Assembly: GCA_034435155.1 (NCBI GenBank)
Contig: DAOTYG010000324.1
Location: forward strand, 13,622-77,621
From: Anaerolineae bacterium
GTDB lineage: Bacteria > Chloroflexota > JAHJIN01
Reading direction: 5' to 3'
DNA length: 64,000 bases
This document shows, one piece after another, positions 8,575-62,805 of this stretch. Numbering within the stretch: the stretch's first letter is position 1; every line of letters starts with the position of its first letter. Position numbers and translations under genes: made by a program. The notes below the pieces were generated by a model, which saw nothing but the letters and a program-made list of their open reading frames with translations, had not been told where the DNA came from and did not search any database.

Positions 8575-9035
8575 TCCTCCTCGTATATTTGCTCGCGCGG
8601 GGTCTGCCCCTTTTGCTCGCGCGGGGTCTGCGACCCCGCGCCCGGCGGCTTCTGTGCTCGCGCGGGGTCTGCGACCCCGCGCCCGGCGGCGGGTGACACA
8701 CCCGCCGCGAGCTGTGCTCGCGCGGGGTCTGCGACCCCGCGCCCGGCGGCTTCTGTGCTCACGCGGGGTCTGCGACCCAAGTGCTCACGCGGGGTCTGCG
8801 ACCCCGCGCCCGGCGGCTTCTGTGCTCACGCGGGGTCTGCGACCCCGCGCCCGGCGGCATCTTGTGCTCACGCGGGGTCTGCGACCCCGCGCCCGGCGGC
8901 TTCTGTGCTCACGCGGGGTCTGCGACCCCACACCCAGCGGCGGGTGACACACCCGCCGCGAGCACAGTTGTTCCCGCCGCGAGCACAGTTGTTCCTGTGC
9001 CATGTGGGGTCTGCGACCCCGCGCCCGGTGGCGGG
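8575..9035. repeat. Tandem array (~9 copies, ~41-bp period) of hairpin repeat TGCTC[GA]CGCGGGGTCTGCGACCCCGCGCCCGGCGGC (10-bp perfect stem GCGCGGGGTC/GACCCCGCGC)
   Basis: Directly visible periodic repeats between the surface-protein start and the TadG-PQQ stop; inter-repeat segments are short (6-25 nt) and recurrent, not unique. Confidence 0.9.
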
Positions 9036-13002: not shown

Positions 13003-15771
13003 CTAGTGGCCCAAGGCTTCCAGCAGGCGCGCCGGGGTGGCCGGCAGCCGGGTGATGCGCACGCCAGTAGCGGCGTGGATGGCGTTGGTGATGGCCGGCG
13101 TGGTGGGGATGCTGGTGATCTCGCCCACACCCTTGGCCCCGTAGGGGCCGGCCGCGGCCGGCGATTCGACGATGATGGGCGTGATCTGGGGCCGCTGCTC
13201 GATGGTGGGTATCCTGTAGCGGCCCAACGAATCGTTGCGGACCAGCCCTTCCTCCAGGTCCAGCTCCTCCTGGAGCGCATAGCCCAGCCCCATGAGCACG
13301 CCGCCTTCCAATTGCCCTTCCACGCCCAACGGGTTGATGGCCTTGCCCACGTCGTGGGCGGCGATGACCCGCAACACTCGCACCTGGCCGGTCGCCAGGT
13401 CCACCTCCACCTCGGCGGCCTGGGTGCCATAGCCGTAGGCGAAGTGGGTGTCGCCGGGGGTCTCCACCGGCACGGTGGGCGGCGCGGTGTAGATGGCCTG
13501 ACACCGGGTGGGCCGGCCCTCGCGGTGGGCCAGGGCCACTACTTCCGCCAGGGTCAAGGTCTGATCTCTGACCGCCGACCGCTGACCGCTGCCGACTGAG
13601 GACTGAGGACTGAAGACTGAGGACAGATCAAAGACCAGAGTGTCCGGCGGCGCGCCCAACTCCTCGGCCGCGGCCCCGGCCAACGATTCCCGCAGGCGGA
13701 TGGCGGCCAGGCGCACAGCATTGCCGGTGATGAACGTCTGCCGGGAGGCGGTGGTGGCCCCCCCATCGAGGGTCTGGCCGGTGTCGCCCAGGATGACCTC
13801 CACGTGGTCGTAGGGCACGCCCAATTCCTGAGCCGCGATCTGGGCTAACACGGCTGGCAGGCCCTGGCCCATCTCGGCAGCCCCGGCCCGCACGATGCAG
13901 CGGCCGTCGGCGGTCAATTCCACCTCAGCCCCGGCCGAATCCGGCAGCGGCCCGCCCAGCCCCACGTTTTTGAAGGCGCAGGCCACACCCCAGCCCCGGC
14001 GCTTGCCGGGATCGGCTGGCTGCGAGGGGCCGGCCGCCTTCAGCGCCTTCTCCACCGCCTCGATGGTCTCCAGCAGGCCCACGCTCTCGCGCAGCACCTG
14101 GCCGGTGGCGATGGTGGAGCCGACCCGGACCGCGTTGCGGCGGCGCAGTTCCAGCGGGTCCATCCCCAACCGTTCGGCCAGGATGTCCATCTGCGTCTCG
14201 CAGGCGAAACAGGCCTGGGGCACGCCGAAGCCGCGCAGCGCGCCGGCCGGGGGATTGTTGGTGTACATGGCGTAGGAATCAATGCGCACATTGGGCACTT
14301 CATAGGGGCCGGCGGCATGGGTGGCCGTGCGGGCCATGACGAACTCGCCCAGGGAGGCGTAGGCCCCGGTGTCGCCCAGGATTTCGACCTCCACCGCCAG
14401 CAGTTTGCCCTCGCGCGTGGCCCCGGTCTTGTAGCGGATGGTGGTGGCGTGGCGTTTGGGGTGGTAGCGTAGCGAATCCTGGCGGGTGTAGACGAGTTGC
14501 ACCGGCCGGCCGGTGACCACGGCCGCCAGGGCCGCGTGGATCTGCACGGAGATGTCCTCCTTGCCCCCAAAGGCCCCGCCCACGGCCGGCTGGATGATGC
14601 GCACCTTCTCCTCTGGCAGGGCCAGGCTGGCCGCCACCTGCGCCCGATCCTTGAAGGGGATCTGCGACCCCACGTAGACCGTCACGCCACCGTCGTCGGC
14701 CGGGACGGCCACGGCCGCCTCCGGCTCCAGGAAGGCATGGTCGGTGGCCGGGGTGTGATAGACCTGCTCGATGACCACGTCGGCCTGGGCGAAAGCGGCG
14801 TCCACGTCGCCCCGTTCCACGTGGGTGTGCTTGAGCAGGTTGCCGCCGGGGTGCAACTGAGGCGCGTCCGGCCGGCGGGCCTCCTCTGGCGAGAAGACGG
14901 CCGGCAACGGCTCATAGTCCACAGCGATGAGGGGCAGCGCGGCCTCGGCCTGGGCCGCCGTCTCCGCCACGACGATGGCGAGGGCGTCGCCCCGGTAGCG
15001 GACCACGTCATACGCCAGGACCGGCCAGTCGTTGCGGGCCACGCCGTGGTTCTTGTTGCCCGGCACGTCGGCGGCGGTGAGGACGGCCACGACGCCGGGG
15101 GTGGCCTGGGCCTGGCTCGTGTCAATGCCCCGGATGCGGGCGTGGGGATGGGCGGAGCGCAGCACTTTGGCATGGAGCAACCCCGGAAAACGGTAATCGG
15201 CGGCAAAGAGGGCGGCCCCGGTGGCCTTGGCGACGGCGTCGGGCCGGGGCAACCGTTGGCCCACGACCGCCGATGGCCGACCGCTGACCACGGGTTCTGG
15301 GGCCGGCCGCAGCCCGGCGGCTACCTGGATCGCCTCCACAATCTTAGCGTAGCCGGTGCAGCGGCAGAGGTTCCGCTTGAGGGCCTGTTCGATCTCCTCT
15401 TCCGTGGGGGCGGGATTCTGGTCCAGCAGGGCCTTGGCGGCCATGATCATCCCCGGCGTGCAGAACCCGCACTGGATGGCTCCCTGCTCCACAAAGGCTC
15501 GTTGGAGTGGGTGCAACTCGCCATCCCGGGCCAGCCCTTCAATAGTTTCTACTGTGGCGCCATCGGCGCGTCGGGCCAGGGTCACACAAGATCGCACGGC
15601 CTGGCCGTTCAGGATCACGGTGCAGGCCCCGCAATGCCCCTGGCCGCAGCCGTTCTTGGTCCCGGTGAGACCCAGCTCATCACGCAGGACTTCCAGCAGG
15701 GTGGTGCGCGGGCCGATTTTGACCTGCTGGGGGACGCCGTTGACGGTGAGGCGAATGGTCTGGGTGCTCAT
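13003..15771 (-). CDS. Molybdopterin-dependent aldehyde oxidoreductase / xanthine dehydrogenase family, fused [2Fe-2S] and Mo-cofactor subunits (Mop-like, no FAD subunit)
   Basis: N-terminal 2Fe-2S cysteine motifs (CGQGHCGAC, CGFCTPG, CRCTGY) then the large Mo-binding subunit (GGAFGGKE, GVGE... motifs); 922 aa resembles the D. gigas Mop architecture. Confidence 0.85.
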   Translation of the reverse strand: MSTQTIRLTVNGVPQQVKIGPRTTLLEVLRDELGLTGTKNGCGQGHCGACTVILNGQAVRSCVTLARRADGATVETIEGLARDGELHPLQRAFVEQGAIQCGFCTPGMIMAAKALLDQNPAPTEEEIEQALKRNLCRCTGYAKIVEAIQVAAGLRPAPEPVVSGRPSAVVGQRLPRPDAVAKATGAALFAADYRFPGLLHAKVLRSAHPHARIRGIDTSQAQATPGVVAVLTAADVPGNKNHGVARNDWPVLAYDVVRYRGDALAIVVAETAAQAEAALPLIAVDYEPLPAVFSPEEARRPDAPQLHPGGNLLKHTHVERGDVDAAFAQADVVIEQVYHTPATDHAFLEPEAAVAVPADDGGVTVYVGSQIPFKDRAQVAASLALPEEKVRIIQPAVGGAFGGKEDISVQIHAALAAVVTGRPVQLVYTRQDSLRYHPKRHATTIRYKTGATREGKLLAVEVEILGDTGAYASLGEFVMARTATHAAGPYEVPNVRIDSYAMYTNNPPAGALRGFGVPQACFACETQMDILAERLGMDPLELRRRNAVRVGSTIATGQVLRESVGLLETIEAVEKALKAAGPSQPADPGKRRGWGVACAFKNVGLGGPLPDSAGAEVELTADGRCIVRAGAAEMGQGLPAVLAQIAAQELGVPYDHVEVILGDTGQTLDGGATTASRQTFITGNAVRLAAIRLRESLAGAAAEELGAPPDTLVFDLSSVFSPQSSVGSGQRSAVRDQTLTLAEVVALAHREGRPTRCQAIYTAPPTVPVETPGDTHFAYGYGTQAAEVEVDLATGQVRVLRVIAAHDVGKAINPLGVEGQLEGGVLMGLGYALQEELDLEEGLVRNDSLGRYRIPTIEQRPQITPIIVESPAAAGPYGAKGVGEITSIPTTPAITNAIHAATGVRITRLPATPARLLEALGH
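13563..13620. repeat. In-frame low-complexity short-repeat insertion (GACCGCTGACCGCTGCCGACTGAGGACTGAGGACTGAAGACTGAGGAC) inside the Mo-oxidoreductase CDS
   Basis: Encodes SVFSPQSSVGSGQRSAVRDQ, compositionally unlike the flanking conserved enzyme sequence. Confidence 0.8.
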
Positions 15772-15785
15772 GAGGACTCCTGTGA

Positions 15786-15832
15786 CACGTGTTGCGTGTT
15801 ACGTGTTCCGTGTTTCGTGTTGCGTGTTACGT
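15786..15832. repeat. Heptanucleotide repeat (GTGTTNC)x6
   Basis: Immediately upstream of the Mo-oxidoreductase start codon (minus strand). Confidence 0.9.
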
Positions 15833-15972
15833 GGCCGGGGTGATTATAGCACCGGTGTTGTAGGGTTGTCAAACCGGCCTTGACCCCGACGCAGAAATGT
15901 GGCATGATCGGGTGGGAGAACACGGATGCCGGGAAAACAGCGGATGAGCGGGGACCGGTTGGGAGCTGAACC

Positions 15973-16473
15973 ATGCCTGAGGATTTGTTGATCTACACCG
16001 TGGGGCATAGTGACCATGACATAGCGACGTTGGTGGGTTTGTTGCGTCGGCACGGGATCACGCGGGTGGCCGACGTGCGCAGCCAGCCGTATAGTCGGTG
16101 GACGCCGCAGTTCAACCGGGAGACGCTGGCCCGGGACCTGCGGGAAGCGGGCATTGGCTATCAGTTCATGGGCGACGCGCTGGGCGGCCGGCCGACCGAT
16201 CCGGCCCTGTATGACCCCGGCCAGGATCGGCCCGATTACCGGCGCGTGGCGCAGACGCAGACGTACCAGCAGGGCATTGACCAACTGCTGGCCCTGGCCC
16301 GGACCGGCCGGGTGGCTATCCTGTGCAGCGAGGGCGACCATCGGCAGTGCCACCGGCACCGGCTCATCGCCCAGACTTTGCTAGAACGCGGCGTCCGGGT
16401 GCAACACATCCAGCCGGACGGGACGACAGTTGAAGGGGAATCCATCCCGCAGCAGCTCTCGCTATTCGAGTAG
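15973..16473 (+). CDS. DUF488 family protein
   Basis: Sequence pattern IYTVGHS...; DUF488-like by recollection, low-complexity ends. Confidence 0.7.
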   Translation: MPEDLLIYTVGHSDHDIATLVGLLRRHGITRVADVRSQPYSRWTPQFNRETLARDLREAGIGYQFMGDALGGRPTDPALYDPGQDRPDYRRVAQTQTYQQGIDQLLALARTGRVAILCSEGDHRQCHRHRLIAQTLLERGVRVQHIQPDGTTVEGESIPQQLSLFE

Positions 16474-16483
16474 GAGAGGAAGA

Positions 16484-16924
16484 ATGCCTGCCATTTTCAC
16501 TATCGGCTACAAGGGCAAAGCGCTGGAGTCATTCATTGGTCAGTTGCGCGAGGCCGGCGTGGACGCGGTGATTGACGTGCGGCTGCGCAATACCTCGCAC
16601 CTGGCCGGCTACACCAAGCGGGACGACCTGGCCTTCCTGCTGCGCGAGGGGTTTGGCATCGCCTACGAGCACCGGCCGGAGCTGGCCCCCACCGATGACA
16701 TCCTGGACGCCTACCACGCCGACGAGGACTGGGCAGACTACGAGGCTCGCTTCCTCCCGCTGCTGCGCGAACGGGCCGCCGAGACTGTAGGGTCGGAGGT
16801 GCTGGCCCGGTATCGCGCCCCGTGTCTTCTCTGTGCGGAGCCGACGGCCGAACACTGCCATCGCCGGCTGGTGGCCGAGCATTGGGCGGCGCACACGCCG
16901 GGGTTGATCATCGTTCACTTGTAG
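16484..16924 (+). CDS. DUF488 family protein, tandem paralog (start at internal ATG with GGAGAGGA RBS)
   Basis: MPAIFTIGYKG... parallels the upstream DUF488 gene; C-terminal CxxC...HCHR motif shared by both. Confidence 0.7.
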   Translation: MPAIFTIGYKGKALESFIGQLREAGVDAVIDVRLRNTSHLAGYTKRDDLAFLLREGFGIAYEHRPELAPTDDILDAYHADEDWADYEARFLPLLRERAAETVGSEVLARYRAPCLLCAEPTAEHCHRRLVAEHWAAHTPGLIIVHL

Positions 16925-17017
16925 TGCGGCAGCGGATGAAGAGCGGAAAAGTGGATACGCTATGCTTTCATCTGCTTATACGCTCCCATCCGTTGCGGTC
17001 AGCGAAAGGGATACCCC

Positions 17018-17749
17018 ATGCCCACCCAGGAAGTCCTCATCCTGGCAATGAGCCAGATGCTCAGCGGCATCTGTACGGCCGGCTTCACCCGCGAGCCGGA
17101 TCCCATCACCGGCCTGCGTTGGGTCCGTCCAGTCCGCGAGTTCGGCGCGCTCCTGCCCGGCGACCTCACCGACGCGGCCGGCCGCCTGGTCCAGTGCGGC
17201 GACGTGGTGGAGCTGAACCTGCTGGCCCCGCGTCCAGCCCTGCCCCACGTGGAGGATTGGACGGCCGACTTTGTCCGGCATCGGCCCCGGCTGCTGCGCC
17301 GGTTGGAGGGCGAGAAACGGGCGCGCTTCCTGGCCGGGCACCTGGACCGCGCCCCGGCCGACGTGTTGGTGCGCCAGACCCGCTCGCTCTGCCTGGTGCG
17401 GCCGGAGCAGGTCTGGGCGCGCTTCTCGCTGGACGCCTACTCTGGCAAGTACGAGGCCGGGCTGGGATTCACACTACCAGGCGGCGTCGGCCACCCCCAG
17501 GCGGCCAGCCCGCGCGGTATCTCCGTGACCGATTTGAAGTGGCGAGCGTTGGGCCGGGCCTGGCTGATGGCAGAGACCGGCAGCACGCTCACCCTGGACC
17601 ACGATGCCCTCTGCGAGCGGTTGAGCGCTGAGACCCTTTACCTGACCGTGGGGCTGAGCCGGGCCTGGCAGGGGCAGTATTGGCCGCTCGTCGTCGGCGT
17701 GCACGTCGTCCCGGACTATGAGATGGAGGTAGACCATGCCAACCTCTGA
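17018..17749 (+). CDS. Hypothetical protein, translationally coupled to TPR-RecQ
   Basis: 243-aa ORF with ATG and upstream purine-rich RBS; no recognisable motifs; 14-nt overlap with the downstream helicase start. Confidence 0.55.
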   Translation: MPTQEVLILAMSQMLSGICTAGFTREPDPITGLRWVRPVREFGALLPGDLTDAAGRLVQCGDVVELNLLAPRPALPHVEDWTADFVRHRPRLLRRLEGEKRARFLAGHLDRAPADVLVRQTRSLCLVRPEQVWARFSLDAYSGKYEAGLGFTLPGGVGHPQAASPRGISVTDLKWRALGRAWLMAETGSTLTLDHDALCERLSAETLYLTVGLSRAWQGQYWPLVVGVHVVPDYEMEVDHANL

Positions 17750-20564
17750 CCCCGGCTCCTCCCTCCTCCTCACTCTCGGCCTGTCGCCGCCTAAAGTCCG
17801 CGAACTCTCCAGCCATGACCGCACTCGCCTGCTCAACTTTCTCTTGCGCTGGGAGCATCCCGAGGAGGTCCACGCCTGCCTGGACGCGCTCGCCGCCATC
17901 AGCCCGGACCTGGTCTCGCTGCTGGATTTGCGCGTGCGAGCGTTTCTGGCCCAGGACCGGCCCGCCGACGCCTTGAAAGTGATGCATGACCGCCTGGCCC
18001 GCAAGACCTCCGCCACGGCCCAATCGCTCCTGGCCCACGTCCACCTGGCCCGGGGTGACGCGGACGCTGCCCACCAGATCGCCCGCGCGCTGGTTGAGGG
18101 CCAGCCGGATAGCGTGATGGCCTGGGGTTTGCTGGGCGAGGTGGAGTTGGCGCGCGGGCAGGCCGACGCGGCCCTGATCGCCTATCGCCGGGTGAACGAC
18201 CTGCGCCCCGGCAGCCGATCCTATCTGCTGGGGATGATGGCCGTCTACCAGGCGCGCGGCGATTGGGCCGCCGCCAGCGGCTACGCCGTGCGCCTGCTGC
18301 GCAGCGCAGACGAGCAGGAAGGTCCGCTCTCGGCCACGTACCTGCGCCATCTGCGCGACTATTTCCGGGCCAGTGGCGAGGAGACCCGCGTGGCCGATGT
18401 GGAAGCGGAACTGGCCCGGCGATACGTTGCGGAACTGGCCGAATTGCAGGCCGCACTGCCCGTAGGGGCCGTGCGCCGGGTGCGCCCGGCCACCGCCCCG
18501 GCTGCGCCCACCGGCCCGGTGGCCGAGCCGGCCGAACCCCTGCCTACCTTCGAGCTTATACCCGTCTCCGAAGCCGAGCGGCAGCGCATCGTCGAGGCCG
18601 CCCGGCGGCTCTTCGGCTTCGAGTCGCTCCTGCCGGGCCAGGTGGAGACCATCGCCTGCGTGTTGCGCGGCGAGGACGTGCTGACTATCCTGCCCACCGG
18701 CGGCGGCAAGTCGCTCTGCTATCAGCTCCCGGCGCTCCTGGCCGAAAAAGGCGTCACCCTGGTCATCTCGCCGCTCATCGCCCTGATGAAAGACCAGGTG
18801 GACTCGCTGCCGGCGGGCCTGCGACGGCAGGCTGCCACCATCAACAGCAGCCTGGAAGGCGACGAGTTGAGCCGGCGGCTGGATCAGGCCGCCCAGGGGG
18901 CCTACCGGCTGGTCTACGCGGCCCCGGAGCGATTGCGCCAGCCGCCGTTCCTGCACGCGCTCCGGCGCGCCGGCGTCAACCGGCTGGTGATTGACGAAGC
19001 CCACTGCGTGAGCGTCTGGGGCCACGACTTCCGGCCCGACTACCTTGCCATCGGCCAGGCGCGAGAGGCATTGGGCCACCCGCCGTTGCTCGCGCTCACC
19101 GCCACGGCCCCACCCCGCATCCGGCGTGACATCCTCAATCATCTGGGTGAGATGCGCGTCGTCGCCGGGGACGTGACCCGGCCCAACCTGCGCCTGGAGG
19201 TGTTCTACGCCCGCAACGCCGACGAGAAGCTGCGTCGCCTGGTGGCCTTCTGCCAGTCCGAATCCGGCAGCGGCATCGTCTACGCCGGCACGCGCGACCG
19301 CTGTGAGGAGCTGGCCGCGCTCTTGCGTAAACACGATGTGCTCGCCAACCATTACCACGCCGGCATCCCCGACCGGGCCCGGGTGCAGGACGCCTTCATG
19401 TCCGGCCGGGTGCGCGTCGTCGTGGCGACCGTGGCCTTTGGCCTGGGGATCGACAAGCCCGACATCCGCTTCATCGTCCACTTTGTCCCGCCGCCCTCGC
19501 TGGAGGCGTACTACCAGGAGGCCGGCCGGGCCGGGCGCGACGGCCAGCCGGCCCGCTGCCTGCTGATGTACGCCCGCTCCGACCGAGCCACCCTGACCCG
19601 CCGCGCCCACGAGGACCTGCTGCCGGTGGAGTTCCTGCGCGCCGTCTACGCCGCCGTCAAGAATCGGCTGGGGGGGACCGGCCCTAGCCGGGTGGCCTGC
19701 GCCGATCTGGAGCGCGACACGCAGGCCGACGATACGCGCGTACGCGTGGCCTTGAGCCTGCTGGAGGAGGCCGGCCTGCTGAAACGCGGCCCCGACGTAC
19801 CCCGCGCCGCCGTCGTCTGCCTGACGGTCAGCGATGCATCAGGCGTCCCGCCGGAACTGGCTGCGTTTTGCGAGGCCGCGCGTCTGCGCCCCGGCCAGCC
19901 GCTCACGGTGGACCTGGTGGACGTGGCCCGGCGCGCCGGCCTGGCCCCGGCCGACGTGGAGCGCCAGGCGTTGGAGTGGGCCGACGCCGGCCGGCTGACC
20001 GTCCGCCCGGCCGGGCGCGACCTGCTGCTGGAGCTATTGCCGCCACCCAAAGACGCCGCCGACCGGGTGGCCGGCCTGTTGGAGCGCTACGCCGCCATCC
20101 AGGCCCAGCGCGTGGACGAGATCGCCGCCTACGCCCAGACCGGCCGCTGTCGCCACGGCTACATCAACGCCTACCTGGGCGGCCGGGCCATCGAGCGGTG
20201 CGATAACTGCGACAACTGCGTGGGAGGTTCACCCGCGTCGGCTCCAGACGCGCCCGCACCTGACGAGCGCGAGCAACTGCTGACCATCCTGCGCTGCCTG
20301 GCCGGGCACGGCTGGGGTCGGCGCAACCTGATCCGCATCCTGCGCGGCGATGATGATGCTCCGCCCAGCGCCCGCAGCAACGCCAGCTTCGGCGCGCTGG
20401 CCGGCCGCTCCGAGGCGGCCCTCGGGCAGATGGTGGACCGGCTGGAGCGTGCCGGGTTCCTGCAAGGGCGTACCCTCGACCACGGCGGGGTGGTGCTTGA
20501 GCTGACGCCGGCCGGCCGGGCCGCGCTGCAAGACCCGGCAGCTTTGGATGGGATACAGAGCTGA
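17736..20564 (+). CDS. recQ: ATP-dependent DNA helicase RecQ with ~290-aa N-terminal TPR-repeat extension
   Basis: Helicase motifs LPTGGGKSLCYQLPAL, DEAHCVSVWGHDFRPDY, RecQ Zn-binding/RQC-like region (CRHGYINAYLG...CDNCDNC) and a C-terminal HRDC-like tail; N-terminal TPR-like helical repeats; GGAGG RBS. Confidence 0.85.
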   Translation: MPTSDPGSSLLLTLGLSPPKVRELSSHDRTRLLNFLLRWEHPEEVHACLDALAAISPDLVSLLDLRVRAFLAQDRPADALKVMHDRLARKTSATAQSLLAHVHLARGDADAAHQIARALVEGQPDSVMAWGLLGEVELARGQADAALIAYRRVNDLRPGSRSYLLGMMAVYQARGDWAAASGYAVRLLRSADEQEGPLSATYLRHLRDYFRASGEETRVADVEAELARRYVAELAELQAALPVGAVRRVRPATAPAAPTGPVAEPAEPLPTFELIPVSEAERQRIVEAARRLFGFESLLPGQVETIACVLRGEDVLTILPTGGGKSLCYQLPALLAEKGVTLVISPLIALMKDQVDSLPAGLRRQAATINSSLEGDELSRRLDQAAQGAYRLVYAAPERLRQPPFLHALRRAGVNRLVIDEAHCVSVWGHDFRPDYLAIGQAREALGHPPLLALTATAPPRIRRDILNHLGEMRVVAGDVTRPNLRLEVFYARNADEKLRRLVAFCQSESGSGIVYAGTRDRCEELAALLRKHDVLANHYHAGIPDRARVQDAFMSGRVRVVVATVAFGLGIDKPDIRFIVHFVPPPSLEAYYQEAGRAGRDGQPARCLLMYARSDRATLTRRAHEDLLPVEFLRAVYAAVKNRLGGTGPSRVACADLERDTQADDTRVRVALSLLEEAGLLKRGPDVPRAAVVCLTVSDASGVPPELAAFCEAARLRPGQPLTVDLVDVARRAGLAPADVERQALEWADAGRLTVRPAGRDLLLELLPPPKDAADRVAGLLERYAAIQAQRVDEIAAYAQTGRCRHGYINAYLGGRAIERCDNCDNCVGGSPASAPDAPAPDEREQLLTILRCLAGHGWGRRNLIRILRGDDDAPPSARSNASFGALAGRSEAALGQMVDRLERAGFLQGRTLDHGGVVLELTPAGRAALQDPAALDGIQS

Positions 20565-20584: not shown

Positions 20585-20625
20585 TTGCTATGGCAATCAC
20601 TATGATGTATAATAGATGTACATCA
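20585..20625 (+). promoter_or_regulatory. Promoter TTGCTA-17-TATAAT with downstream palindrome ATGTACAT (putative VapB operator) for vapBC
   Basis: -35 at 20585-20590, -10 at 20608-20613. Confidence 0.6.
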
Positions 20626-20642
20626 CTCACGGAGGTAATAAG

Positions 20643-20924
20643 ATGGCCGCTTTAGCCAAAAAGAAACCGCTCCAGGTCTACCTGCGGCCGGATCAAATCG
20701 AGCCGCTGCGGGCGCTGGCCCAACGGCGGAAAACCTCACTGGCGGAACTCGTGCGCCAGGGGGTAGACCGCATCCTGGTCGAGGTGCCAGTGGAAGAGGA
20801 CCCGTTGTGGGACATCGTGGGTCTGGGAGATTCAGGCCTCGGTGATCTGTCCGTTGAGCATGATCGGTACCTGGCCGAATGGGAGGCGGAGGATAACCAG
20901 ACATGGAAAAAGCCATCTTCATAG
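20643..20924 (+). CDS. vapB: VapB-like antitoxin (ribbon-helix-helix type)
   Basis: Small ORF with GGAGG RBS directly upstream of and overlapping a PIN toxin; lower-GC segment. Confidence 0.65.
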   Translation: MAALAKKKPLQVYLRPDQIEPLRALAQRRKTSLAELVRQGVDRILVEVPVEEDPLWDIVGLGDSGLGDLSVEHDRYLAEWEAEDNQTWKKPSS

Positions 20925-21313
20925 ATAGCGGAGCCTGGGTGGCTTTAGCCGATATTCGCGATCAGTTCCATTCTGATGCCGTCGGCGTGTACTCACAGGT
21001 ACTACAGCAGTGGAAATACCAGGTTACAACTGATCTGGTCATCGCCGAAGCCTACAATATGATTCGCCGCCGCCTGGGGCACACCGCCGGGATCCGGTTT
21101 CTGGAGTCCCTGCGGAAATCGTCACGTTTGATCAAGATATACTGCGATGCCGCCCTGGAAATACAGGCCGAGGCGATCCTCCGTCGTTACTCTGACCAGG
21201 ATTTCAGTTTCGCCGATGCCGTCAGCTTCGCCGTGATGCAGGAGCGCGGGATCACCGAGGCGTTTGCCTTCGACCAGCACTTTCGGACAGCGGGCTTTGC
21301 GCTGCTCCCCTGA
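20903..21313 (+). CDS. vapC: VapC PIN-domain toxin
   Basis: MEKAIFIDSGAWVAL...DLVIAEAYNM...FADAVSFAVM: PIN-domain acidic residues in canonical spacing. Confidence 0.8.
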   Translation: MEKAIFIDSGAWVALADIRDQFHSDAVGVYSQVLQQWKYQVTTDLVIAEAYNMIRRRLGHTAGIRFLESLRKSSRLIKIYCDAALEIQAEAILRRYSDQDFSFADAVSFAVMQERGITEAFAFDQHFRTAGFALLP

Positions 21314-21337
21314 TCCGCCAGTCCGCGCCCATGCGAA

Positions 21338-21378
21338 ACGGGCGAGCCGTCATGGCTCGCCCGTTTGTTTGTGTGTTG
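21338..21378. terminator. Bidirectional intrinsic terminator AAACGGGCGAGCC-gtca-TGGCTCGCCCGTTTGTTTGTGTG
   Basis: 13-bp GC-rich stem, 4-nt loop, T-rich tail on plus strand and A-run on the other; sits between convergent vapC and degV. Confidence 0.8.
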
Positions 21379-27197: not shown

Positions 27198-27210
27198 GGC
27201 TCCCCCAATC

Positions 27211-27362
27211 GAATGGACGAATGGACGAATGGATGAATAGACGAATGGACGAATAGACGAATGGACGAATAGACGAATGGACGAATGGACGAATGGATGA
27301 ATAGACGAATGGACGAATAGACGAATGGACGAATAGACGAATGGACGAATAGACGAATGGAC
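27211..27362. repeat. Octanucleotide microsatellite (GAATRGAC)x19 followed by an inverted GCATTCGTCCATTC hairpin
   Basis: Perfect 8-bp periodicity; the ORF track's DUF47 N-terminal extension (HSSIRPFVYSSIRLFV x n) is its translation. Confidence 0.95.
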
Positions 27363-27408
27363 GAGCAGCTCAACAGTCGCGCATTCGTCCATTCATAGAT
27401 TCGTAAAT

Positions 27409-42329: not shown

Positions 42330-42411
42330 GATTGGCAAATGGCAGATTGCAAATGGCAAATTGCAGATTGCAGATTGCAAATTGCAGATTGCAGATTGCA
42401 GATTGCAAATT
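42330..42411. repeat. Heptanucleotide tandem repeat (GATTGCA/AATGGCA)x11
   Basis: 7-bp periodicity between giant membrane gene stop and four-helix-bundle start. Confidence 0.95.
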
Positions 42412-42426: not shown

Positions 42427-42828
42427 ATGACGTATGAGGAGTGGGAGCGGCAGGTGGCGGGGGAGATCAAGGCGGATGCGTTGTGGCAGATGGATGTGTA
42501 TCGGCTGGCGTTGTATCTCTACGACCTGGCCTGGGATGATTGCGAGACGCTAATGAGGGATGCGCGGGGCAGGGCGATAGTGGAGCAACTTATCCGCAGC
42601 GCTGGATCGGTGGCGGCCAACATAGAGGAAGGGTTTGGCCGGGGTTTTGGCAAGGGATACGCCTACTTTCTGCGCATCTCTCTCGGCTCGGCCCGCGAGA
42701 CCCGGGGCTGGTACTATCGAAGCCGCCGTTTGTTGCCCCCGGCCGTGATCAAGCATCGCCTGGACCTGCTGAGCCAGATCGTCGCGATCCTCGTCACGGC
42801 CGCGCACCAACAGAGACAGCGCAAGTAG
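42427..42828 (+). CDS. Four-helix-bundle protein (TIGR02436 / 23S rRNA intervening-sequence protein family, Avd-like)
   Basis: Motifs SVAANIEEGFGRG, YFLRISLGSARETRGWYY typical of PF05635; start at ATG 42427 with GGAAGGAGGGG RBS, since the ORF-track N-terminus is repeat-derived. Confidence 0.75.
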   Translation: MTYEEWERQVAGEIKADALWQMDVYRLALYLYDLAWDDCETLMRDARGRAIVEQLIRSAGSVAANIEEGFGRGFGKGYAYFLRISLGSARETRGWYYRSRRLLPPAVIKHRLDLLSQIVAILVTAAHQQRQRK

Positions 42829-42920
42829 CAGATTGCGGATTGCAGATTGCAGATTGCAGATTGCGGATTGCAGATTGCAATTCGCAATTTGCAATTTGCA
42901 ATTCGCAATTCGCAATTTGC
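42828..42920. repeat. Heptanucleotide repeats (GCAGATT)x7 then (GCAATTY)x6 forming a long imperfect palindrome
   Basis: 7-bp periodicity; second half is a near reverse complement of the first half. Confidence 0.95.
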
Positions 42921-46472: not shown

Positions 46473-46555
46473 TCGGAATGCGGAATGCGGATTTCGGAAT
46501 GCGGAATGCGGAATGGGGGGCCATACGCCGCATTCCGCATTCTATATTCTACATT
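46473..46555. repeat. (CGGAATG)x6 heptamer tract plus inverted GCATTCCGCATTC arm forming a hairpin
   Basis: Between AGPS-like gene stop and glpD start. Confidence 0.9.
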
Positions 46556-54465: not shown

Positions 54466-54590
54466 GCAGTGACTGCCTGCCCTCCCGCAGGTTGGGGTAC
54501 AATGGGCCAGACCAGAAGGTATTGCCCCTCTAACCTATTACAAACTCCTTGCAAACCCCCCGCTTTTGGTATAGAATAAGACCGGCTATT

Positions 54591-54766
54591 GCGGAATGGG
54601 GAATGCGGAATGCGGAGTGCGGAATGGGGAATGGAGAATGCGGATTTCGGAATCTGATTACGCAGTCTGCCATTTGCCATTTGCCATGTGCCATTTGCAA
54701 TTTGCAATCTGCAATTTGCAATCTGCAATCTGCAATCCACAATCCGCAATCTGCCATCCGCAATCC
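54591..54766. repeat. Heptanucleotide repeats (GGAATGS)x~9 then (TGCCATT/TGCAATC)x14 upstream of pdxS
   Basis: Two adjacent 7-bp-period tracts. Confidence 0.95.
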
Positions 54767-62465: not shown

Positions 62466-62805
62466 CCCGCAAGTCAAAGATTCCTGCTCGCGCGGGGTCT
62501 GCGACCCCGCGCCGGCGGCTATCTTGTGCTCGCGCAGGGTGTGCCACCCCGCGCTGGTGGGCGGCGGGTCACCCAGTCAGGCCTGGGCCTGGCAGACCCG
62601 CCGCGAGCGAGGGTCTTATGCTCGCGCGGGGTCTGCGACCCCGCGCTGGTGAGTGGCGGGTCACCCAGTCAGGCCTGGGCCTGGCAGACCCGCCGCGAGC
62701 GAGGGGCACACCCTCTTATGCTCGCGCGGGGTCTGCGACCCCGCGCTGGTGAGTGGCGGGTCACCCAGTCAGGCCTGGGCCTGGCAGACCCGCCGCGAGC
62801 AGTGG
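62466..62805. repeat. Tandem array (3.5 copies, ~95-bp composite unit) of the same GCGCGGGGTCTGCGACCCCGCGC hairpin plus a second GGCGGGTCACCCAGTCAGGCCTGGGCCTGGCAGACCCGCC hairpin
   Basis: Near-identical 95-bp units between darA and the CBS gene. Confidence 0.9.

Follow-up and report, generated by a model that had tools for sequence, protein, structure and literature searches.

Organization of the four-gene block

The DNA analysed here, referred to below as the window, is a stretch of 64,000 nucleotides from an Anaerolineae bacterium of the Chloroflexota (contig DAOTYG010000324.1, positions 13,622 to 77,621 of the forward strand). At positions 15973-20564 the window carries four genes, all on the plus strand, which encode two paralogous DUF488 proteins, a dual OB-fold protein (DuOB) and a RecQ-family helicase with an N-terminal extension of tetratricopeptide repeats (TPR-RecQ). 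A first-pass annotation, made from the sequence alone, had described this compact block of co-directional open reading frames as a possible unrecognised module. The arrangement of the genes is as described, but the module is not wholly unrecognised. On sequence matching, DUF488-1, DUF488-2 and DuOB correspond to families already catalogued as candidates, namely the B, C and A components of the PADLOC system PDC-M45 (PDC, phage defence candidate), and to the Pfam families DuOB and DUF488-N3a. The helicase is the new element.

DUF488-1 (15973-16473; 166 amino acids) is followed after 10 nucleotides by DUF488-2 (16484-16924; 146 amino acids) and, after a further 93 nucleotides, by DuOB (17018-17749; 243 amino acids), the end of which overlaps the start of TPR-RecQ (17736-20564; 942 amino acids), giving an intergenic distance of -14 nucleotides. 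The open reading frame listed for DUF488-2 begins with a TTG codon at 16430. Given that the ATG at 16484 has GGAGAGGAAGA, a GGAGAGG-type ribosome-binding site, 5' of it, and that the resulting 146-amino acid protein has the length of all orthologs, this ATG is taken as the best start. The overlap between the DuOB stop and the RecQ start, ATGCCAACCTCTGA, is exactly the 14 nucleotides first reported, and a GGAGG sequence lies 8 nucleotides 5' of the RecQ ATG. Such an overlap suggests translational coupling of the two genes. No terminator-like sites were found within the four-gene block.

A promoter-like site, TTGACC-17-CATGAT with a TG element, lies 5' of DUF488-1 on the plus strand (15880-15908), as a consensus match only. 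Upstream of orthologous operons the pattern is different but recurs, taking the form CATTTG… TATACT. With regard to an SOS/LexA-type operator, no dyad motif was enriched among 68 upstream regions, and an Rfam scan of the window returned no matches.

Conservation of the gene order and gene fusions

The wider occurrence of the block was assessed by a genome scan with one genome per species, in which a close DuOB alignment yielded 91 relatives and 80 loci were kept with 10 kb on either side. Gene presence at these loci was scored by tblastn with the window proteins. As a close alignment was used, the scan samples Chloroflexota only, and all 80 loci belong to the Anaerolineae, Thermoflexia or Caldilineaceae. 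The order DUF488-1, DUF488-2, DuOB and TPR-RecQ on one strand is complete in 44 of the 47 loci that are fully evaluable, a co-occurrence beyond chance. The exceptions are L022 and L045, with no DUF488 gene within 10 kb, and L031, with no RecQ. Both DUF488 genes are present wherever enough upstream sequence is available in all but two cases (57/59), and TPR-RecQ in all but one of the loci with enough downstream sequence (60/61). Spacing between DuOB and RecQ is mostly 0-125 nucleotides among the orthologous loci.

The flanking genes are unrelated from locus to locus, and no flanking family is common to more than 9 loci. In the window the flanks comprise a molybdenum hydroxylase, Tad pilus genes, DegV, ACP, FabH and an ECF sigma factor, and in three other loci for which the flanks were annotated these are likewise housekeeping genes. 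Matrices of pairwise identity, one for each of the four genes, correlate with r = 0.75-0.90, and the genes have therefore diverged together; median identity is 77% for the RecQ core and 69% for DuOB. A metagenome search with the TPR segment alone gave 4 loci, three of them nearly identical and three with short upstream sequence, and in all 4 DuOB lies upstream, as does at least the DUF488 gene next to it.

Physical fusion of the components was also observed. In P0125, a protein of 1047 amino acids found in two independent assemblies, DuOB is joined directly to RecQ without TPRs, and two DUF488 genes lie upstream in the contig. The RecQ core of P0125 is 54% identical to that of the window and of the same subtype, with the same insertion of ∼160-190 residues between the end of Helicase_C (595) and the start of the Zn-binding domain (782). 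On an archaeal contig with MCM, TBP and eIF neighbours, DuOB is fused to RQC and HRDC domains, and two DUF488 genes follow. Since a DUF488-DUF488-DuOB triad also exists without a helicase (L090), coupling to RecQ is lineage-specific, yet it is found in three architectures. Synteny across 80 species genomes, unrelated flanks, co-divergence and the DuOB-RecQ fusion together bear out the proposal of the first-pass annotation that the four genes are one module: they form a single conserved, co-inherited operon.

A further arrangement was seen on a metagenome contig (L096, 2531-6095), where a 615-amino acid DuOB protein with a weak Swt1-like HEPN C terminus is divergent to an adjoining ParB_N-HTH_ParB-DUF488 fusion. 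For an archaeal protein of the latter kind, in which a ParB-CTPase fold is fused to DUF488-HTH, CTP binding has been reported in a preprint.

The TPR-RecQ helicase

Residues 1-285 of TPR-RecQ (17736-18590, plus strand) comprise TPRs followed by a Pro/Ala-rich linker. The models TPR_16, TPR_14 and TPR_19 all score above Pfam cut-offs within residues 44-190, in agreement with the TPR character originally ascribed to this region. The extension is kept at all 75 loci that reach it, with 32-71% identity, and contains motifs such as RLLNFLLRWEH and YQARxDWVTASGYAVRLL across 17 aligned orthologs. Its constancy, and its replacement by DuOB in P0125, fit the earlier suggestion that a scaffold has been grafted onto the helicase.

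The helicase core (residues 286-625; 18591-19610) retains intact GGGKS, DEAH and QEAGRAGRDG motifs and matches Pfam DEAD (E = 8.7e-25) and Helicase_C (E = 9.2e-16). Residues 289-625 match E. coli RecQ (Protein Data Bank entry 1oyw; E = 4.6e-89). The protein passes the NCBIfam RecQ-family model TIGR00614 (351 bits, cut-off 219.8) and scores below the cut-offs of the recQ equivalog models TIGR01389 (424 versus 640 bits) and NF008279 (352 versus 1015 bits). A Zn-binding Cys cluster and an RQC-like winged helix occupy the C-terminal part (20088-20564). The former matches RecQ_Zn_bind (E = 7.6e-9; residues 785-828, profile positions 20-65) and has four Cys in the pattern CRH…CDNCDNC, and the latter is a weak match (E = 0.0024). 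The alignment with 1oyw stops at residue 625 and the Zn-binding match starts at 785, which places an insertion of ∼160 residues at approximately 19611-20087; this insertion is probably characteristic of the RecQ subgroup.

No HRDC domain is present in the window RecQ, which ends at the very point at which its closest ortholog (L007) continues into the linker and HRDC. Among orthologs, HRDC is present in proteins of ∼1040-1080 amino acids and absent from those of ∼940 amino acids. Loss of HRDC through insertion of the vapBC pair that lies downstream was considered but is not borne out, as no HRDC remnant was seen within the window and about one-quarter of orthologs also lack the domain.

It might be argued that the helicase is an ordinary housekeeping RecQ that happens to lie beside three unrelated small genes with which it shares no function. 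It does pass the RecQ-family threshold, it has the canonical core, Zn-binding and RQC elements, most of its orthologs carry HRDC, and no second RecQ is encoded in the 64-kb window. Chance neighbourhood is nevertheless hard to reconcile with a gene order that persists while the flanks are shuffled, with the DuOB stop/RecQ start overlap or with the DuOB-RecQ and DuOB-RQC-HRDC fusions, and the TPR extension, the subtype-specific insertion and the sub-equivalog scores set this helicase apart from an ordinary RecQ. The data thus disfavour this explanation, which is considered highly improbable.

Two defence helicases were also examined as possible identities. The RecQ core matches the PADLOC models for DpdF and PsyrT (E = 4e-134 and 4e-107, respectively), but only through the generic helicase core. 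The Dpd system was rejected because the score against NF041063 was 195 versus 550 bits and there are no dpd genes in the block or its immediate neighbours. PsyrTA was rejected because the PsyrT model matches the helicase core alone and no PsyrA match was obtained among the five other proteins scanned (the two DUF488 proteins, DuOB and the vapBC pair), nor is there a PsyrA in the immediate neighbours.

The DuOB protein

The 243-amino acid product had initially been given no recognisable domain. It is, however, a full-length member of the Pfam family DuOB (PF22557; E = 9.4e-16, residues 5-228 against profile positions 2-210). Among the models for PDC-M45 A (PDLC04653-04656), PDLC04653 is the only one matched, with E = 1.3e-9 and over residues 3-84 only; judged from these alignments, the window protein is homologous to PDC-M45 A but divergent.

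An AlphaFold2 model of DuOB was obtained with high confidence (predicted local distance difference test score, pLDDT, 95.2). It predicts tandem OB folds, the nearest structures being single-stranded DNA (ssDNA) binders and telomere-end binders. Conserved residues are W35, R37, P38, H77, E79, D80, S123 and D172, of which the polar set (W35, R37, H77, E79, D80, S123 and D172) suggests a specific binding pocket. The modelled fold, together with the fusion of DuOB to RecQ, RQC and HRDC modules, is consistent with a protein that may bind ssDNA or DNA ends.

The homologs closest to the window protein (70-98% identity) all derive from Anaerolineae/Chloroflexota metagenomes, and the family as a whole is small: clustered at 50% identity, it accounts for 197 clusters among 1.84 billion representatives. 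The window-type DuOB, when searched against plasmids, phages and viral contigs, gave no sequence match, a search of viral contigs with the Agrobacterium-type DuOB gave none, and a DuOB fold search of viral structure models returned nothing significant.

The DUF488 paralogs

DUF488-1 and DUF488-2 both match Pfam DUF488 (E = 2.6e-25 and 1.3e-20, respectively) and are 31% identical, in keeping with the tandem paralogy noted at the outset. DUF488-1 matches the PDC-M45 B model PDLC04657 (E = 6.1e-55, residues 6-162), and DUF488-2 matches the PDC-M45 C model PDLC04658 over its whole length (E = 6.7e-46). Pfam DUF488-N3a (PF22751), the 'active' type to which DUF488-2 is assigned, is matched besides DUF488. 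Neither paralog matches the 'inactive' N3 models.

A CxxC…HCHR motif had been attributed to each of the two proteins. This holds for DUF488-2, in which the predicted active-site motif is C114-x2-C117-x-E119…C125-H126-R127 (nucleotides 16823-16867, plus strand). By contrast, DUF488-1 has one upstream Cys only, and its predicted motif reads C118-x-E120…C126-H127-R128, or C-x7-CHR (nucleotides 16324-16356). Across 74-78 orthologs the Cys, His and Arg residues of the motif do not vary in either paralog, and the same holds for distant members including B-type proteins, so that both enzymes look catalytically competent.

The AlphaFold2 model of DUF488-2 (pLDDT 91.8) was built on a shallow alignment consisting of homologs of 75-94% identity and the DUF488-1 of the window. 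It has a Rossmann-like fold, as in protein tyrosine and dual-specificity phosphatases (PTP/DSP) and in RapZ-C. Fold-search figures were 8.7 for laforin, 8.5 for SsoPTP, 8.4 for Tk-PTP, 8.2 for SEX4 and 8.0 for PRL-1, followed by the baculovirus RNA 5'-phosphatase (6.9), PIR1 (6.7), the capping-enzyme triphosphatase (6.4) and RapZ-C (6.0). In the model, C117 lies at the end of strand 113-117 and C125-H126-R127 at the start of helix 126-136, so that the Cys…CHR loop is predicted to occupy the position and geometry of the PTP P-loop. No solved structure for DUF488 or DuOB was detectable by sequence search. A processing activity on terminal phosphates attached to ribose has been proposed for the sister family DUF4326 (PMC9503650), which fits the terminal phosphate-linked chemistry that the DUF488 pair may perform.

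An alternative assignment is nucleic-acid modification, in which the DUF488 pair would add a covalent group, for example via a Cys-linked phospho or nucleotidyl intermediate, to ssDNA that is exposed by RecQ and held by DuOB, in the service of self-marking or regulation. The DuOB homolog P0115 is named 'putative nucleic acid modification protein with dual OB domain', two catalytically intact-looking paralogs could carry out two sequential steps, and the DuOB protein of L096 is paired with a DUF488 fusion of the kind for which CTP binding was reported. However, conserved genes for a donor-generating enzyme, a cofactor-binding protein or a cognate restriction component are lacking both in the operon and around it, and the modelled fold points to phosphate-ester chemistry in a way that does not separate removal of a group from its transfer. 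Modification is judged unlikely, although less so than chance neighbourhood.

DUF488 homologs were also encountered on mobile elements. Seven related Gordonia phages (e.g. NC_031061.1, 33860-34282) encode a homolog 33% identical to DUF488-2 at genes 42/43, and one of these phage records labels gene 42 'HipA toxin'. The Klebsiella IncC plasmid pKp55 (L092, 2161-5435) carries a UvrA paralog followed directly by a single DUF488-N3a-like gene, the product of which is 41% identical to DUF488-2, and matches of the same identity are present on many large conjugative enterobacterial plasmids.

The vapBC pair and other features of the window

A vapBC pair (20616-21313) follows TPR-RecQ on a segment of lower GC content (0.57 versus 0.70-0.75 in RecQ), as had been noted. 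Its products match RHH_3 weakly (E = 0.005) and PIN (E = 4.8e-11), and the two genes overlap at 20903-20924. An ATG at 20643, preceded by GGAGG, is probably the better vapB start. The pair is provided with a promoter-like site of its own (20585-20613), and a strong terminator follows it (21336-21366). From this pair it had been argued that the neighbourhood is accessory-like, which is not sustained: the pair is absent from all other loci among the 80 of the Chloroflexota scan, and the surrounding genes are housekeeping genes. The vapBC pair is a window-specific insertion outside the four-gene module.

On the other side of the block, a divergent molybdenum-hydroxylase gene (13003-15771) is faced by a perfect minus-strand TTGACA-18-TATAAT promoter sequence with an extended TG element (15843-15872), and the 5' leader of this gene contains a 6.7-fold array of ACGTGTT (15787-15833). 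Heptanucleotide tandem repeats, and one octanucleotide array, are found in many spacers of the window, at 27210-27364, 42330-42411, 42828-42920, 46474-46515 and 54590-54765. The repeat units in these spacers are GATTGCA (11.6 copies), CGGAATG (6 copies), TGCGGAA (9 copies), GCAATCT (15 copies) and CGAATGGA (19 copies). Similar heptads (CATTTGC and GACTCGC) are present upstream of orthologous operons in other Anaerolineae, and the heptad repeats of the window resemble the STRR repeats of cyanobacteria. A palindrome, GCGGGGTCTGCGACCCCGC, recurs in repeat clusters at 8614-8995 and 62522-62800 with periods of 41-100 nucleotides; these clusters look REP- or MITE-like and are not CRISPR-regular.

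Relation to PDC-M45 and the case for a defence function

PDC-M45 is one of 145 untested 'phage defence candidates', which were nominated on the basis that they are embedded in BREX, DISARM or type I restriction-modification loci (Payne et al. 2024, bioRxiv 10.1101/2024.01.29.577857). In its canonical form, on an Agrobacterium plasmid (L093), PDC-M45 consists of DuOB, a DUF488 protein of 214 amino acids and a DUF488 protein of 148 amino acids (E = 1e-88, 1e-84 and 1e-73, respectively), with HORMA/AAA (CBASS-like), TcmP/DUF5131, ImmA/IrrE and integrase genes as neighbours. Another PDC-M45 triad is surrounded by a type III CRISPR locus on a plasmid of Allochromatium, and a third lies beside the gene for a giant SNF2 protein on a linear plasmid. 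A variant in which the B-type DUF488 gene is missing, DuOB-DUF488(C)-DUF4326, was observed on plasmids of Acinetobacter (L094) and Citrobacter (L099), which are small and non-mobilizable; there it lies beside partition and toxin-antitoxin genes. In the window, by comparison, vapBC is the sole conflict-related neighbour of the block.

One interpretation of these relationships is that the operon is PDC-M45 with an added helicase and serves in defence against phages or other mobile elements. TPR-RecQ would sense or unwind foreign DNA, and DuOB and the DUF488 proteins would block or mark its ends, or act on nucleotides, with the result that replication is stopped. Besides the correspondence of three components to a system nominated from defence loci and the company that the canonical triad keeps on plasmids, RecQ-like helicases are known in defence systems, as the DpdF and PsyrT matches illustrate. 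Internal spacers of >400 bp with extra open reading frames were also observed in 22 of the 80 orthologous operons, either between DUF488-2 and DuOB or between DuOB and RecQ (L007, L008, L015, L017-L021, L024, L039, L050, L058, L078, L080 and others). Inserts tested with hidden Markov models include PDDEXK_3 (PD-(D/E)XK), DUF3800, NTP_transf_2 (MNT/nucleotidyltransferase) with HEPN, DUF559, HNH, NYN, DUF6036, an N6/N4 DNA methylase and a T2SSE-GAF-SpoIIE protein; in the window, vapBC follows RecQ. Such insertions are, however, weak evidence, as toxin-antitoxin genes are generally abundant in genomes of this kind. All 145 PDC systems, PDC-M45 included, are only candidates. Moreover, the operon is strongly conserved and co-diverges across orders, whereas defence systems typically show a patchy distribution and turn over fast. 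Its flanks consist of housekeeping genes and not of defence islands, and the searches of phages, plasmids and viruses for relatives of the Anaerolineae-type DuOB gave none. Defence is regarded as possible but somewhat doubtful.

A proposed RecQ-centred complex acting on DNA ends

The interpretation that is preferred, with a probability of roughly 0.5, is that the four products form a RecQ-centred complex that processes DNA ends or ssDNA in a maintenance-type role. In this scheme RecQ, of which the motor, Zn-binding and winged-helix elements are intact, would unwind DNA at an end, nick, gap or fork. DuOB would capture the exposed single strand or terminus, and the two DUF488 paralogs would remove or transfer a phosphate-linked group at that terminus. 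The TPR extension may be the docking platform for these partners, a part that covalent fusion would play in P0125, where DuOB takes the place of the TPRs.

Several observations weigh against this interpretation. Outside the Anaerolineae the core triad sits in defence contexts, and the toxin-antitoxin, nuclease and methylase inserts in the orthologous operons point towards conflict biology rather than repair. The DUF488 loop, C-x7-CHR (C-x9-R), is longer than the canonical C-x5-R loop of Cys-dependent phosphatases and contains a second Cys. Literature searches returned nothing functional for DUF488 or for YeaO, the E. coli member of this family, and nothing for DuOB or PDC-M45. In addition, the idea that the TPR extension docks a conserved C-terminal 'QLSLF' tail of DUF488-1 was dropped, as the 'LF' tail is also present in triads without RecQ and is thus not specific to the RecQ-linked forms.

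Given the strong conservation and co-divergence of the four genes, their housekeeping flanks and the negative searches of phages, plasmids and viruses for relatives of the Anaerolineae-type DuOB, we nevertheless lean, with moderate confidence, towards a genome-maintenance role in the Anaerolineae lineage, in which DNA ends would be cleaned or marked, for example. There, a PDC-M45-like core has become a stably inherited chromosomal operon with a dedicated RecQ subtype. A bolder proposal, which we put forward tentatively, is that the operon represents an undescribed DNA-end pathway that is vertically inherited in the Anaerolineae and evolutionarily continuous with the mobile PDC-M45 triads. If so, the operon would be an immune module that has been domesticated or, the other way round, the repair module that was ancestral to the mobile versions.

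DUF488 is a widespread family and DuOB a rare one. The stable coupling of both to RecQ in an operon, together with fusion to RecQ modules in some lineages, ties them to DNA-structure processing. Thus, the operon is of moderate interest because the function of two uncharacterised families becomes directly testable. Should the Anaerolineae operon prove to serve repair, PDC-M45 calls in genomes need not always be a sign of immunity; should it prove to be a defence module, it would be an unusually conserved defence system with a helicase sensor.

Comparison with known systems

The window helicase shares with E. coli RecQ (1oyw) the core, the Zn-binding Cys cluster and the RQC-like winged helix and, in most orthologs, HRDC. 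It differs in the 285-residue TPR extension, the ∼160-residue insertion and a score under the equivalog cut-off. Whereas E. coli RecQ partners with the OB-fold protein SSB, the window RecQ has a dual-OB protein of its own, which the same operon encodes and which is fused to RecQ in one lineage. In eukaryotes, the RecQ helicase of the BLM-RMI1-RMI2 complex likewise has dedicated OB-fold accessory subunits. The resemblance is a functional analogy only, in that a RecQ helicase is paired with dedicated non-SSB OB-fold proteins in both cases; the window operon contains no topoisomerase partner and has, in addition, two enzymes with a predicted phosphatase fold. For DpdF of the Dpd 7-deazaguanine system and for PsyrT, likeness to the window RecQ is confined to the RecQ-like core.

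The DUF488 pair may be compared with polynucleotide 5'-phosphatases of the Cys-phosphatase type, such as baculovirus BVP, PIR1 and the metazoan capping-enzyme triphosphatase. These enzymes have a C-x5-R loop, in contrast to C-x7-C-H-R in DUF488, sequence identity is 7-13%, and the activity of DUF488 is only putative. Burroughs and Aravind reportedly predicted, in 2023, that members of the RapZ-C/DUF488/DUF4326 clade process or modify DNA ends, and the Pfam names DuOB and DUF488-N3a are said to come from their classification. The window proteins match both of these families, and the modelled fold would support kinship with Cys-phosphatases and RapZ-C. Unlike the 'inactive' N3 class, both DUF488 paralogs retain catalytic-looking residues.

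The closest known system is PDC-M45, which is made up of the same three families. Both DUF488 paralogs are clear one-to-one orthologs of its B and C components and are adjacent and co-directional in each case. The gene order is B-C-A in the window, however, and A-B-C in the PDC-M45 triads of L093, L097 and L098; the window DUF488-1 lacks a C-terminal extension of ∼40 amino acids that is present in the PDC-M45 B protein, and the window DuOB is divergent from PDC-M45 A, with residues 3-84 matching one of the four A models. Relative to PDC-M45 the window operon adds a TPR-RecQ that appears to be translationally coupled. Operons of the window type are chromosomal, lie among housekeeping genes and are lineage-wide, whereas PDC-M45 triads are found on plasmids or in defence islands. 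In summary, what is new here is a RecQ-coupled, chromosomal form of the known but uncharacterised DUF488-DuOB/PDC-M45 type.

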